Below, one piece after another: positions 2,486 through 35,259 of a stretch of 35,259 nt of DNA. Position numbers and translations under genes: made by a program. The stretch's first letter is position 1. Each line of letters opens with the position of its first letter. The stretch comes from a virus (Duplodnaviria; Caudoviricetes): positions 1 to 35,259 of IMG/VR virus record IMGVR_UViG_3300010376_000088. One strand, given 5' to 3'. The notes under the pieces were generated by a model, which was given only the letters and a program-made list of their open reading frames with translations, was not told the DNA's origin and did not search any database.

Positions 2486-2980
2486 GTGTCGGAAACACGC
2501 CATCAGCCACCAGAGTGGCTGACGCGGGCTGAGGCGGCTGCGGTAGCTCGGGTCAGCCAGAAGACGATCGACAGAGCGATCGCCAGCGGAAGCCTGCGCG
2601 CGACCAAGGTCAACGGCCGCCGCGTCCGCATCCACCGCAGCTGGCTCACCGCCTGGCTGCTCGGCGCCGCCCTCCTCATCTGCTCGCTCTACCACTCCGA
2701 GCGCGTCGACCGCTGGTGCCAGACGGTCAAGCAGGGCCGCTACGGCGCGCGGCTCGCGAAGCTGGCCGCGCTCGTCTTCTCGACGCTTCTGCTTCTGTTC
2801 ATGCTCGGCAACGTCGCGAGCTGGGACCCGGCCGAGCACGTCATGCGGAACCTCGGCATCAGCTGGGGCCCGGGCGTCGACACCGACCACGACGGCGTGA
2901 TCGGCAACGACCACGACGGCGACCACGACCCGACCAGCGACGTCGGCCAGGCGACCGACCGCGATCCGCGGCACCCATAG
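2486..2980 (+). CDS. Xis-like HTH domain fused to hydrophobic helices and an Asp/His-rich tail
   Basis: WLTRAEAAAVARVSQKTIDRAIASGSLRATKVNGRRVRI; hydrophobic segments WLTAWLLGAALLICSLY and LAALVFSTLLLLFMLGNV; DTDHDGVIGNDHDGDHD; start GTG 2486 inferred. Confidence 0.75.
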   Translation: MSETRHQPPEWLTRAEAAAVARVSQKTIDRAIASGSLRATKVNGRRVRIHRSWLTAWLLGAALLICSLYHSERVDRWCQTVKQGRYGARLAKLAALVFSTLLLLFMLGNVASWDPAEHVMRNLGISWGPGVDTDHDGVIGNDHDGDHDPTSDVGQATDRDPRHP

Positions 2981-3027
2981 GTGCTCAGGCTGACGCGGCG
3001 GCGCAGCATGAGCAGGTATGCGCTATG
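2976..3027. repeat. 52-bp cassette, copy 1 (CATAggTGCTCA-N21-TGAGCAggTATG-cgctatg)
   Basis: Near-identical to 24629-24680 and 30568-30619. Confidence 0.9.
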
Positions 3028-4000: not shown

Positions 4001-4155
4001 GTCTCGTCCTCCCTCCAGCCCGGCCAGCCGTCGGCCAGCGTCTCCATCCGCGCCCACGGCTCCGCGTTCTCGAACGGCGGGTCCGGCAGCGGCGGCGGCG
4101 ACGTTCGCTCGTACTCGGCCTCCGTGCGGCCGTCCTCCGATTCCTGCGGAATCAC
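3988..4155 (-). CDS. Small hypothetical protein
   Basis: GTGA-coupled start at 4155; fills the gap before the endolysin. Confidence 0.5.
   Translation of the reverse strand: MIPQESEDGRTEAEYERTSPPPLPDPPFENAEPWARMETLADGWPGWREDETWDS
4139..4153. promoter_or_regulatory. Palindrome GATTCC-N3-GGAATC, copy 1 (parS/operator-like)
   Basis: Also at 17273, 25573 and 32500. Confidence 0.7.
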
Positions 4156-24628: not shown

Positions 24629-24680
24629 CATAGGTGATCAGGCTGCGGCGGCGTGTCGTGGTGAGCAGGTATGCGCTAGG
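24629..24680. repeat. 52-bp cassette, copy 2
   Basis: CATAGGTGATCA-N21-TGAGCAGGTATGCGCTAGG. Confidence 0.9.
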
Positions 24681-26025: not shown

Positions 26026-26031
26026 CGTGTC

Positions 26032-26098
26032 CTCCTTCGGACTCGGATCACGGTGCACCGGCTGGTGCACCCGCCCCCGCCATCGCGGGCGGGAGCGG
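26032..26098 (-). promoter_or_regulatory. Conserved structured leader A (before parB)
   Basis: CCGC[hairpin]GCGG-GUGCACC-N4-GGUGCAC-CGU-GAUCCGAGUC-CGAAGGAG. Confidence 0.85.
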
Positions 26099-27322: not shown

Positions 27323-27684
27323 CAGAACGACGAGCCCGAGACGGTCGCGATGCCGTACGCGGCCGACGTCTGCGCCTGGTCGACGACCGTCGTTCCGTCG
27401 AGCAGCGTCAGGTGGAGCGGCTCGCTCCCGCCGTCCTGCTTCTGCACGTCGGCGGCGGTGATCGCCAGGTCGTGGAAGCGGATCACGCGGCGGCCGCTCC
27501 CGTCGTAGGTCGACCCTCCGACGGCGCCCGACCACGAGCACGCGCAGTCGACCTCGAGCGCGTAGTCGTGCGTCTTCTTCGTCGCGTCGGTCGCGGCCTT
27601 GCTGGCGACCGCGACGAGCGCGACGCCCATGACGATGACGAGGGCGACGAACGCGCCGCCCCCGACTATGAGTGCGTTTCTCAC
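27322..27684 (-). CDS. Membrane-anchored exported protein (MmpS-like architecture)
   Basis: N-terminal TM helix LIVGGGAFVALVIVMGVALVAVA followed by a small beta-rich domain; SD GAAGGAGG. Confidence 0.75.
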   Translation of the reverse strand: MRNALIVGGGAFVALVIVMGVALVAVASKAATDATKKTHDYALEVDCACSWSGAVGGSTYDGSGRRVIRFHDLAITAADVQKQDGGSEPLHLTLLDGTTVVDQAQTSAAYGIATVSGSSF

Positions 27685-27689
27685 TTGTC

Positions 27690-27755
27690 CTCCTTCGGAC
27701 GTTTGACTCGGATCGGAGCGGGTGCTCCCGCCCCCGGCCAGGTGGCCGGGAGCGG
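27690..27755 (-). promoter_or_regulatory. Conserved structured leader B
   Basis: CCGC[hairpin]GCGG-GAGC-ACCC-GCUC-C-GAUCCGAGUC-N7-CGAAGGAG. Confidence 0.85.
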
Positions 27756-30484: not shown

Positions 30485-30490
30485 CACTTC

Positions 30491-30554
30491 CTCCTTCGGT
30501 TGACTCGGATCGGAGCGAACGCTCCCGCCGCCTCGTCCTCACGGGCGAGGGCGG
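30491..30554 (-). promoter_or_regulatory. Conserved structured leader C (before ku)
   Basis: CCGC[hairpin, GUGA loop]GCGG-GAGC-GUUC-GCUC-C-GAUCCGAGUC-AAC-CGAAGGAG. Confidence 0.85.
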
Positions 30555-30567
30555 CAACGCTCTCTCT

Positions 30568-30619
30568 CATAGGTGCTCAGGCTGGCGCGGCGGCGCATCA
30601 TGAGCAGGTATGCGCTATG
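30568..30619. repeat. 52-bp cassette, copy 3
   Basis: CATAGGTGCTCA-N21-TGAGCAGGTATGCGCTATG. Confidence 0.9.
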
Positions 30620-30633
30620 CGCTGGTGCCCGCG

Positions 30634-32425: not shown

Positions 32426-32432
32426 TCTGGGC

Positions 32433-32521
32433 CTCCTTCGTGAACGGCCTCGCGGCCGCGTTGCGTTGACTCGGATCACGGAGCGGATGCTCCCGCACTG
32501 ATTCCGGCGGAATCAGCGCGG
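32433..32521 (-). promoter_or_regulatory. Conserved structured leader D (before the helicase); its first hairpin is palindrome copy 4 (32500-32514)
   Basis: CCGC-G-CUGAUUCC-GCC-GGAAUCAG-U-GCGG-GAGC-AUCC-GCUC-CGU-GAUCCGAGUCAA...GUUCACGAAGGAG. Confidence 0.85.
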
Positions 32522-32527
32522 CAACGT

Positions 32528-32842
32528 CTACGCCTTGCGACTGGCGACCGGCTCGTCGACGACCTCGACGCCGATCCCTTCGCCGAGCAGCCGGTCCCAC
32601 ATCGACTTCTCGGTCTCGGCCGCGGTGAACGCGGCGAACACGGCCTCGGCCTGCAGCCCGTGGACGATGCCCACCCGCTGCTCGGTCGCGCCACCGGCGA
32701 CCGCGCGCAGCGCGGCCTCGATCTGGTCAAGCTCTGCGCGCGCTGACCAGATCGCGTTCAGCGCCGCCTCCATCTTCTCGTCGGCGTCCGCGGACAGGCG
32801 GTGAAGCATCTCCACGGCGACGTCGATCTGTGCTGCGTCCAT
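32528..32842 (-). CDS. Hypothetical protein
   Basis: 104 aa, SD GAAGGAG. Confidence 0.75.
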   Translation of the reverse strand: MDAAQIDVAVEMLHRLSADADEKMEAALNAIWSARAELDQIEAALRAVAGGATEQRVGIVHGLQAEAVFAAFTAAETEKSMWDRLLGEGIGVEVVDEPVASRKA

Positions 32843-32848
32843 CTCGTT

Positions 32849-32915
32849 CTCCTTCGTTCGACTCGGATCGTTCGGAGCAGGCGCTCCCGCCAGCCGCCCT
32901 CGCGGGCGGCGGCGG
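32849..32915 (-). promoter_or_regulatory. Conserved structured leader E
   Basis: CCGC[hairpin, GCGA loop]GCGG-GAGC-GCCU-GCUC-CGAAC-GAUCCGAGUC-GAA-CGAAGGAG. Confidence 0.85.
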
Positions 32916-33154: not shown

Positions 33155-33435
33155 CAGACGAGCTCCTCGAGCTGCTCGCGCAGCTCGATCAGCGCGTCGA
33201 CGGCCGCGCGCTGCTCCTCGATCACGGAGCCGAGGTCGCGATCGCCGATCGGCAGCGTCTTCGCGAACTCGATCAGCGCGCTCAGCTCGCGCGCCTTCGT
33301 GCGGATCGTGTTGTTCGTCCGCGTCGCGACCACGTCGGTCGTCGACTCGAACGACAAGCCCTGGTCGGCGACGCCGCGGACGGCGACGCCCGCGCGGCTG
33401 GCCGCGTCGAGCATGTTCAGCGTGTTCGTGTGCAT
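33154..33435 (-). CDS. Hypothetical protein, first gene of the early arm
   Basis: 93 aa, SD GAAGGAG. Confidence 0.75.
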   Translation of the reverse strand: MHTNTLNMLDAASRAGVAVRGVADQGLSFESTTDVVATRTNNTIRTKARELSALIEFAKTLPIGDRDLGSVIEEQRAAVDALIELREQLEELV

Positions 33436-33449
33436 CTCTTTCTCCTTCG

Positions 33450-34086
33450 TTCGTTGTCTTCACGTACAACGGGCGGCCATTCGGCCGCCCGTGAATCGCC
33501 GCTACGGAATCGAACCGTCCACGGCGACAGGCGCGATCTACCACTCGCGCCTTGCTCTGATCGAATCTGCTCGCTGTCCCTCTCGCGTCCGTGCGTGCGA
33601 CGCGGTGTGTCCTGGCGAGCCACCCATGCGGATCGAGGGCGACCACGCCCTCGTACTCGGCGAGCGTCCGGCGCGACTCGATCGCGAACGCCTACTCCCT
33701 CTCGTCGTGTCCTACCGACGAGCCTTTCGACTCGCGGCGACGGCTCGTTCGTTACCGGCCGTCGTCGCTCACGCGATCGTCGTCGTGCCTTTCACTCGCT
33801 TTCACCCGCTCGATCTGGGTGCCGGGGACCGCTGACTGGCGCTGACGCCTAACCCGGTTCTCGTGCCCGTTGCCGATCGCGAAGTTCCTCCTCGCTTCCT
33901 TCCTCGCTGCCTGAGCTTGCGCTCTCCCACTTCCGGTCGTCTTACGAGCACCGGTCGGGCGGGCAGGCGTTTCACCGGGGGCTTTCGCAATCCCGGATCG
34001 GAAGCTGTGTTCTGGCTCCGCTGGGCCGCTCGGAGAAGACAGGGCGCGCTCGCTGGTGACTGTCGCGGTGTCTTTCTCTCTGGTCT
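33450..34086 (-). ncRNA. Putative large structured RNA / 5' leader of the early transcript
   Basis: No credible ORF; dense hairpins, GAAA and GCAA tetraloops, nested multibranch pairing, D-loop-like and T-loop-like hairpins. Confidence 0.65.
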
Positions 34087-34092
34087 ACTTTA

Positions 34093-34121
34093 AGCATAGC
34101 ACATAGGCGCTCACGGGCGAA
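34093..34121 (-). promoter_or_regulatory. Leftward early promoter
   Basis: TTCGCC-N17-TATGCT with extended TGn; a TGAGCnnnTATG half-site lies in the spacer. Confidence 0.55.
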
Positions 34122-34183
34122 GCGAAAACCCCTGCAAACGGGCACATTTGAGCCACTATGCTGTCGCCCGCGAGGGCAACGGC

Positions 34184-34212
34184 TTGGCCCGTCCGGCGCA
34201 CCCGGCTACACT
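34184..34212 (+). promoter_or_regulatory. Rightward SigA-like promoter
   Basis: TTGGCC-N17-TACACT; predicted start ~34218. Confidence 0.65.
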
Positions 34213-34217
34213 CCACC

Positions 34218-34346
34218 ATGCCGTCCGAGTCGGGTCGCTTTCTCTCTGGTCAGAGCTGGTTGCCTCCTCGGACGGCGCTGCTCGGGGCTCCGCCATCTCC
34301 TTCGTGAACCTTGACTCGGATCGCGTAGCGGCGGAGCCCGGGCAGC
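34218..34346 (+). ncRNA. Putative trans-acting antisense RNA with two stem-loops
   Basis: Stem 1 34220-34229/34267-34276 (10 bp); stem 2 34277-34294/34330-34346 (17 bp, one bulge, one U-G); loops complementary to early-transcript elements. Confidence 0.65.
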
Positions 34347-35173
34347 TCGAGCATCTGGCGATCGACCTGCCCGCCGGCACCGTGACCGTGCGCGAGGTCG
34401 GCGACGTCTGGCAGTCGGAGCAGACGTTCGACCTCGACGACCCGCGGGCCTTCGAGGCGATCTCGATCGCCTGGCTGCGCTGCGCCTGGGACGTCAAGCA
34501 CCAGTGGTCGTACAGCTGGTTCGGCCGCCCGATCATCCAGCTGCCCGAGGACATGTTCCGCGTCCAGGAGCTCGTCTGGCGGCTGCGCCCGGACGTCATC
34601 CTCGAGACGGGCGTCGCCCACGGCGGCTCGCTCGTCTTCTACGCCTCGCTCTGCAAGGCGCTCGGCCACGGCCGCGTCATCGGCGTCGAGCTGCCGCGCA
34701 GCCCGGACCTCGACCACCGCGACGCGATCATGCAGCACCCGCTCGCCGACTACATCACGCTCATCCACGGCGACTCGATCGCGGCCGACGTCGTCGACCG
34801 CGTCTACGACGACATCGGCGTCCCGCGCATAGGTGCTCAACCGCACGCGCCGCCGACCGTGCTGCTGCTGCTCGACTCCGACCACAGCCGCTCGCACGTC
34901 ATCTCCGAACTCGTCGCCTACGGCCCGCTCGTCACGCCGGGCTCGTACGCGATCGTGCAGGACGGCTTCATCCAGTCACTCGTCGCCCGCACGCACGGCC
35001 CACGCGCGAACCCGGACTGGGCGACGAACAATGCGCTCGTCGGCGCCCGCGCCTTCGTCGCCGCCAACGCCGACGACTGGGCGATCGGCCCGCCCGACCC
35101 GCCCTTCGACGAGGGCGTCGCGCCCCACTCGGCGACCCACTTCACCGGCGGCTGGCTGCGCCGCCTCCGCTGA
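34304..35173 (+). CDS. CmcI-family (cephalosporin hydroxylase / rhamnosyl O-methyltransferase-like) SAM-dependent methyltransferase; start uncertain
   Basis: YSWFGRPIIQLPEDM...QELVWRLRPDVILETGVAHGGSL...GDS...LDSDHSRSHV...ELVAYGPLVTPGSYAIVQD. Confidence 0.88.
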   Translation: MNLDSDRVAAEPGQLEHLAIDLPAGTVTVREVGDVWQSEQTFDLDDPRAFEAISIAWLRCAWDVKHQWSYSWFGRPIIQLPEDMFRVQELVWRLRPDVILETGVAHGGSLVFYASLCKALGHGRVIGVELPRSPDLDHRDAIMQHPLADYITLIHGDSIAADVVDRVYDDIGVPRIGAQPHAPPTVLLLLDSDHSRSHVISELVAYGPLVTPGSYAIVQDGFIQSLVARTHGPRANPDWATNNALVGARAFVAANADDWAIGPPDPPFDEGVAPHSATHFTGGWLRRLR

Positions 35174-35259
35174 CAGCGCACACGCCCGAGCGCTCGCCGG
35201 ACACACCGCTCGCCCGCGGTTTTTCCAGTTTTTTTCGCGGGGCGCGGGGTTGTGGGTCA

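Follow-up and report, generated by a model that had tools for sequence, protein, structure and literature searches.

Genomic setting of the control region

The window is the full record IMGVR_UViG_3300010376_000088 (35,259 nt; genome G000), which comes from an uncultured soil phage of the Caudoviricetes, is 80% complete and has a G+C content of 71%. Nearly all its genes are on the - strand; a gene for a CmcI-family methyltransferase is on the + strand, at the right end. According to Pfam and PHROG scans, the gene products include a tyrosine integrase, two HTH_17 proteins, portal, capsid, sheath and baseplate proteins, as well as ParB, Ku, a ligase and an AAA_25 primase/helicase-like protein. 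The control region (Table 1) consists of a predicted leftward early promoter with a long non-coding leader and, on the other strand, a candidate RNA of two hairpins that overlaps the likely start of the CmcI-like gene. Five ribosome-binding regions farther to the left match the second hairpin of this RNA.

Table 1. Features of the control region and regions matched by the candidate RNA in the window.
Feature	Position	Strand	Remarks
Predicted loop-2 target before the ParB gene	26031..26049	-	From tiling of the RNA against the genome
Predicted loop-2 target before gene 27325-27684	27689..27715	-	From tiling of the RNA against the genome
Predicted loop-2 target before the Ku gene	30490..30512	-	From tiling of the RNA against the genome
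Predicted loop-2 target before the AAA_25 primase/helicase-like gene	32432..32477	-	13-nt and 12-nt matches around a small hairpin
Predicted loop-2 target before gene 32531-32842	32848..32870	-	Tag and SD; from tiling of the RNA against the genome
Early-operon leader, structured and non-coding	33436..34086	-	651 nt; 471-667 nt in three relatives
Predicted hairpin-1 target	34062..34085	-	Bases +2..+15 (34085-34072) of the predicted early transcript; continues, with a bulge, to about +25
Predicted early promoter	34093..34121	-	Weak -35 34121-34116, 17-bp spacer, extended TGn-TATGCT (34098-34093)
B box (12 bp)	34102..34113		In the early promoter spacer; same place in 4/4 near loci, not in L149
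Predicted RNA promoter	34184..34212	+	-35 34184-34189, 17-bp spacer, -10 TACACT 34207-34212
Candidate two-hairpin antisense RNA	34219..34346	+	About 128 nt; 3' end may run into the CmcI-like gene
Hairpin 1	34220..34276	+	10-bp basal stem, bulged upper stem, apical loop CUGGUC 34246-34251, antisense segment 34232-34251
Hairpin 2	34277..34346	+	Anti-SD segment 34296-34304, anti-tag segment 34311-34323, apical loop UUGACUC
CmcI-family methyltransferase gene	34304..35173	+	PF04989, E 5e-49; likely GTG start in loop 2, without a preceding SD

Five of the best 120 matches to the integrase have names (Conexibacter, Solirubrobacterales and Baekduia, about 35% identity), and on this basis the host is probably a soil member of the Thermoleophilia, which is a weak inference. 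At the integrase end of the window, an attP-like arrangement is seen at 504-529, 640-700 and 749-774, where the integrase ORF has a partial tRNA-like sequence at its end, between tandem 11-bp repeats. Two divergent HTH_17 genes adjoin the integrase (2483-2977 on the + strand and 1952-2284 on the - strand), and the product of the rightward one has a hydrophobic C-terminal part. The palindrome GATTCC-N3-GGAATC occurs at 4139, 17273, 25573 and 32500; its copies, which are partly intragenic, resemble parS or an operator, and there are four of them in G001 and none in G002.

The control region was compared in five loci, the window and four relatives, which represent about three independent lineages. 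L003 belongs to a complete genome of 43.7 kb (G001) that is about 73% identical to the window. L057 and L101, the latter a piece of 628 nt, were found in a scan of metagenomes which returned 121 loci from 23 of 64 parts; five of these have translated similarity to the window, two with the control region and two with the tags only, the fifth being L082. The most distant relative, L149, lies in a genome of 44.9 kb (G002) which is 100% complete by CheckV and whose primase is 65% identical. Contigs X1-X3 are either identical across the control region or do not cover it. L149 and L057 also contain non-coding AC-rich sequence and tandem repeats (L149:2860-3700, L057:2200-2460), adjoining conserved consecutive T-tracts, which are likewise found at the end of the window; this stretch is probably a genome end or origin. 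Genes for a sugar epimerase, an aminotransferase, a methyltransferase, a sulfotransferase-like and a TAGT-like protein lie near a ParB-like gene at L144:9672-13588, L152:776-1894 and L149:281-1956, a possible cluster for DNA or surface modification.

Other searches gave little. The collection of cultured phages contained no relative of the control region (four short chance matches, and ParB matches below 45%). Scans of GTDB genomes gave either no match or a single unrelated one (L142). A viral scan with hairpin 1 gave 15 loci, of which the only real one was a relative already known, and two of the three loci from a scan with the B-box promoter were unrelated. Rfam gave no match at E<=10 in positions 33300-35259 of the window, and none at E<=1 in the region of L057, L101 and L149. 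A covariance model built on the four near loci (window, L003, L057 and L101) did not find the L149 RNA at E<=1, and MAFFT misaligned it; the changed tags led to it, and it was recognised by eye from its fold and its two complementarities. No description of this RNA was found in the literature, where supplements with large tables of candidate RNAs, or subscription papers, could hold the motif.

The early promoter and the repeated 14-mer

The 14-mer CTTTCTCTCTGGTC is present in exactly two copies in the 35,259 nt, at 34072-34085 and 34238-34251, each on the + strand, and no further site is found within two mismatches on either strand of the whole record. Matching GTCGC extensions lie at 34062 and 34234. 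The repeat is thus placed as the earlier note had claimed. When the 330-nt region is shuffled with its dinucleotides preserved, only 3 of 5000 versions contain an exact repeat of at least 14 nt, but 8 of 100 native 350-nt tiles of the window genome also hold one. For this reason the repeat by itself is modest evidence, and the question is settled by the relatives.

The first copy had been placed about 7 nt downstream of a leftward -10. Indeed, the predicted early start, A34086, is the seventh base past this -10 and the complement of loop 1 begins at +2. The promoter scan tool detected no promoter, and the promoter calls rest on inspection by eye and on conservation. The early promoters of L003, L057 and L101, in the same position, have the near-consensus form TTGAC(G/T)-17-TATGCT, and the weaker promoter of the window is therefore backed by its relatives. 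In L003 (1786-1807), L057 (3583-3609) and the L101 promoter, a 9-10-bp inverted repeat links the early -10..-1 segment to the loop-1 target. This repeat co-varies with the target in these three of the five loci, and its length in the other two is 3 bp (window) and 5 bp (L149); it would mask the target in a read-through transcript, or fold in the open promoter.

The leader has conserved islands and precedes the first early gene. No SD-led ORF is present in the window copy and no U-tract terminator was found in the leaders. The predicted +1..+8 of the window leader are mostly unpaired, while the 5' end of the predicted leader is largely paired in L003 and L149. Partners within the leader are predicted for the 3' half of the loop-1 target in three loci (window, L057 and L101). 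A second pairing site in the leader for the 3' arm of hairpin 1 was considered and rejected as a general feature: the fit is good in L057 only (0.4% of random windows do as well, compared to 6%, 15%, 34% and 87% in the other loci). Towards its 3' end (window 33495-33560, - strand) the leader has a hairpin with a tRNA-like T-loop, which is conserved in L003 and L057, and the leader may itself function as a structured RNA.

The candidate two-hairpin RNA

The RNA is predicted to start at about 34219, at the base of hairpin 1. In all five loci a -10-like hexamer lies 6-7 nt ahead of this hairpin, which suggests that the 5' end of the RNA is primary. The fold of the window RNA has a z score of -5.9, with none of 200 shuffles equally stable, and z ranges from -4.2 (L149) to -6.6 across the five loci; in L057 the opposite strand folds more stably than the RNA strand. 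Compensatory changes affect 8 of 36 pairs in the four near loci, a number that none of 500 column shuffles reaches (kinship being ignored). All ten guide loops open with YUNR, compared to 15 of 529 random loops. YUNR loops are described as a known feature in RNA-RNA recognition (PMC4737173).

The 14-mer had been assigned to loop 1 as a whole. Only six of its nucleotides (34246-34251), complementary to bases +2..+7 of the predicted leftward transcript, lie in the predicted apical loop, and the others belong to the bulged upper stem.

In the four near loci the likely start codon of the CmcI-like gene is within loop 2. The N-terminus M(N/D)LDSD is found in the three aligned proteins, and the gene is absent from G002. 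The GTG at 34304 is preceded by the anti-SD segment, and the hairpin arm encodes an N-terminal extension that is present in the homologues from these phages; translation of the CmcI-like gene could depend on loop-2 pairing. A leftward ORF across the RNA was rejected, since its SD-start spacing would be 0-1 nt and is not conserved.

Loop 1 and the 5' end of the early transcript

In every locus hairpin 1 matches the first bases (+1..+25) of its own predicted early transcript: the perfect match is 14 nt long in the window, 10 in L003 (15 of 16 with one mismatch allowed), 13 in L057, 17 in L101 and 12 in L149, and it starts at +2 in four loci and at +4 in one. The pairs of loop 1 and target fall into three sequence classes (window and L057; L003 and L101; L149), with cross-matches of 10-17 nt within a class and 4-6 nt between classes. 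The net two-strand energies give the same pattern among the four near loci. Conservation of the 14-mer as a pair in relatives, which had been proposed as a check, is thus observed, as a complementarity in trans that co-varies in five of five loci, and the refuting conditions named in the earlier note do not overturn the pairing.

The two predicted transcripts had been described as divergent and non-overlapping, which is the case in the window, where their starts are about 133 nt apart, and the distance is 133-166 nt in the loci with this arrangement. Divergence is, however, not a required part of it. The L149 RNA gene lies about 1 kb upstream, past the putative genome-end region, on the same strand as the early transcript; an extended -10 of its own immediately precedes hairpin 1, and a CmcI gene is lacking. 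The RNA gene has been moved and inverted, so that the DNA repeat is inverted rather than direct, and the antisense polarity is kept. A protein-bound direct repeat or a local duplication would not predict this, which argues for loop 1 and the early 5' end acting by RNA pairing. The view that the repeats are DNA sites of a protein (operators, or stoperator- or SAS-like sites) or due to chance, the hairpins being a mere leader of the CmcI-like gene, could appeal to the start codon in loop 2 of the near loci and to the frequency of 14-nt repeats in native tiles, but it is largely refuted by L149. G002 keeps the RNA without a CmcI gene and inverted, both matches fall on U-turn loops of a compensated fold, and on the - strand the anti-SD copy of the RNA is not followed by a start at a usable SD spacing; this view is very improbable.

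Loop 2 and the tagged ribosome-binding sites

When the RNA was tiled against the genome, loop 2 was seen to contain an anti-SD segment and a segment of 10-13 nt matching a tag that immediately precedes the SD in five leftward genes. The earlier account of the RNA, which is sustained for the complementarity of loop 1, was therefore incomplete, as it missed loop 2 and its five early-gene ribosome-binding regions. The tagged genes, which encode the primase/helicase-like protein, Ku, ParB and unknowns, occupy a stretch of about 7 kb. In the window, no tag is present at the first early gene (33157-33435).

The tag is strand-specific. The tag 10-mer occurs six times on the + strand of the window and never on the - strand (0.09 expected), and seven times against none in G001 (0.12 expected), one of the seven having no SD. 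Apart from the copies in the RNA itself, an SD follows the tag in 5/5 cases in the window, 5/6 in G001 and 3/3 in G002, at a distance of 0-28 nt in these 13 of 14 copies. The tag is mostly preceded by a GC-rich mRNA hairpin, and five more copies were found in L043, L057 and L067. It was also considered as a -35 element, a reading rejected since no -10 lies downstream.

When 39 gene starts are ranked by duplex energy with the RNA, the five tagged genes are in positions 1, 2, 3, 5 and 6. In G002 the tag and loop 2 have changed together: the cognate duplexes have energies of -34 to -39 kcal/mol, compared to -19 to -28 kcal/mol for the non-cognate ones. Similarly, small indels next to the SD are common to the RNA and the primase-gene target in the window and L003. 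Co-folding with the whole RNA has a favourable net energy (-6 to -9) for three of the five tagged leaders and 0 for the other two. Pairing of loop 2 with ribosome-binding regions is probably the main output of the RNA.

Possible protein regulators near the early promoter

The 12-bp B box of the early promoter recurs elsewhere. In the window it forms imperfect inverted pairs, 21 bp apart, at 2976-3026, 24629-24680 and 30568-30620, and single boxes at 34102, 34149 and 34828; some B boxes overlap a start codon. G001 has four such pairs and in G002 the consensus is changed. The B box is likely the operator of a protein regulator. LexA-like boxes were rejected: no perfect site is present in the three genomes and none lies near the promoters.

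It had been proposed that the pair of RNAs sits where a cI/cro pair normally would. The position fits, and no HTH_3 gene flanks the early promoter in any of the three genomes (G000 being 80% complete); G000, at that completeness, has no HTH_3 match at all. On the other hand, the idea that RNA stands in for cI/cro is weakened by the B box, which suggests a protein regulator, by an Xre-type gene elsewhere in G001, about 7 kb from the early promoter around the circle, and by G002, which has no match to a tyrosine or serine integrase, while the window and G001 have integrases. In the cI/Cro test, the only HTH found at G002 is that of ParB; an HTH_36 protein was also matched in this genome. Among HTH families, that of ParB is alone in being common to all three genomes.

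Proposed mechanism and alternatives

On balance, the two-loop RNA is likely to be a trans-acting antisense repressor of the early operon, which may be mutually titrated by the 5' end of the early transcript. It would be a primary transcript from a host-type promoter, and its 5' end would be paired. Pairing of hairpin 2 would begin with its U-turn loop on the tag, extend over the SD and block ribosome loading on replication, repair and ParB genes; this step is quite probable. The U-turn loop of hairpin 1 would capture the free first bases of the early transcript, a pairing which is held with high confidence. Pairing at loop 1 would then remove or inactivate both RNAs one-for-one. In such a double-negative loop, an excess of RNA would turn the early genes off and an excess of early transcript would release them, which makes a threshold switch; in members that have an integrase, early genes off would mean lysogeny and immunity.

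The physiological role is less certain. It is conceivable, and on present evidence rather doubtful, that this RNA toggle runs the lysis-lysogeny decision and superinfection immunity, the sequence of loop 1 and of the early 5' end defining immunity groups which would be the three classes given above. Alternatively, the RNA could be an early-to-late timer of the lytic cycle, which accumulates and then shuts the early genes off, and not a factor of lysogeny or immunity. This alternative has an appreciable chance, if well short of even. It is favoured by G002, where the RNA, both pairings and three tags are kept in spite of the lack of an integrase match, but the integrases of the window and G001 speak against it, as does the back-to-back arrangement of the RNA and the early promoter in four of five loci, with no HTH_3 gene there. 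Moreover, a rapid split into classes that do not cross-pair is typical of immunity determinants such as c4 (PMC5320573), and G002, with its ParB and HTH_36 protein, could be a plasmid prophage. Since G002 has no integrase match, the role shared by these phages could be either the shut-off of early genes or a plasmid-type lysogeny.

As to the outcome of loop-1 pairing, loop 1 cannot block a ribosome, because the first gene is 471-667 nt downstream; with no ribosome-binding site at the target, one-for-one removal or inactivation of both RNAs would be the likely consequence. In the five dimer folds the predicted duplex reaches at least 20 bp into the 5' arm of the basal stem of the RNA, an opening which is partly forced as the program cannot put a duplex within a closed loop. 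Such a duplex would expose both RNAs to nucleases, and mutual titration is therefore preferred, tentatively and with real doubt.

Close behind it ranks a one-way silencing of the leader, in which loop 1 would cause premature termination or decay of the early leader, like P4 CI, the RNA itself not being inactivated. The existence of a long structured leader with conserved islands before the first gene supports it, and binding would remodel the leader where the 3' half of the target is paired within it (window, L057, L101); P4 CI works in this way (PMC4825925). However, the leaders have no U-tract terminator, blocking of their 5' end in silico reveals no common new structure, and the second site for the 3' arm is good only in L057. 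With neither a terminator nor a shared refolding of the leader, the attenuation that had been suggested finds no positive support, and one-way silencing is rather unlikely.

An action of the RNA on DNA, loop 1 invading the open early promoter or guiding a protein there, is improbable. A third co-varying copy in L003, L057 and L101, which makes loop 1 complementary to the bubble's template strand as well, would fit it, but the repeat between -10..-1 and the target is short in the other two loci (window, 3 bp; L149, 5 bp), every target is antisense to an mRNA and includes the SD, and the Pfam and PHROG scans of the predicted genes submitted show no Cas, TnpB or IS110-like family.

Comparison with known systems

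The candidate RNA would work like c4, P4 CI and RNA-OUT, and yet it is a member of none of these families. The c4 RNA of P1 and P7 (RF01695) is likewise a trans-acting phage RNA which displays segments in loops, combining occlusion of the ribosome-binding site with specificity (PMC5320573, PMC12197685), and changes in its loops split immunity groups (PMC5320573). The corresponding feature here is seen at the level of sequence, in a loop 2 that carries anti-SD plus anti-tag segments. The RNA differs from c4 by its architecture (two adjacent long hairpins and about 130 nt, compared to three stem-loops and about 77 nt), by the absence of a match to the Rfam covariance model RF01695, and by its origin, since it is a predicted primary transcript whereas c4 is a product of RNase P. 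The targets are also different: replication, repair and ParB genes and the 5' end of a transcript here, an antirepressor operon for c4. Motifs of the c4 type are listed in Proteobacteria and phages (PMC2864571).

P4 CI resembles the present RNA in that, through pairing in a leader, it silences replication genes of its own phage (PMC4825925). However, CI is cut from the leader that it controls and causes termination, whereas the RNA described here would be a separate gene with its own promoter and no overlap, and has an anti-SD loop.

The pairing of an apical loop with a free 5' end recalls RNA-OUT and RNA-IN of IS10; here the complementarity is predicted from +2 or +4 in five of five loci, with YUNR loops. 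RNA-OUT overlaps its target in cis and forms a duplex that covers the ribosome-binding site, whereas the present complementarity is in trans, as indicated by co-variation, without overlap, and the first ribosome-binding site is 471-667 nt away.

To our knowledge, RNA-based phage immunity (c4, CI) is limited to a small number of enterobacterial phages, with a single operon leader as its target in each. The RNA described here would be an unrelated one whose two guide loops are separable: loop 2 would serve a regulon of tagged ribosome-binding sites, and loop 1 the first bases of a transcript. Its natural cognate and non-cognate pairs make swap tests possible, and could provide orthogonal repressor parts for actinobacteria.

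The tags themselves are reminiscent of the start-associated sequences (SAS) of Cluster K mycobacteriophages, asymmetric repeats in one orientation at the ribosome-binding sites of non-structural genes, for which PMC3203893 leaves open whether the reader is an RNA or a protein. Like SAS, the tags are asymmetric, in a single orientation, and adjoin the starts of non-structural genes, but they differ from the 13-bp Cluster K consensus quoted in that paper. A further difference is that a matching structured RNA, which co-varies with the tags, has been identified here, and the upstream inverted repeat supports hairpin pairing. This RNA is thus a worked candidate for the reader of start-associated repeats in actinophages.
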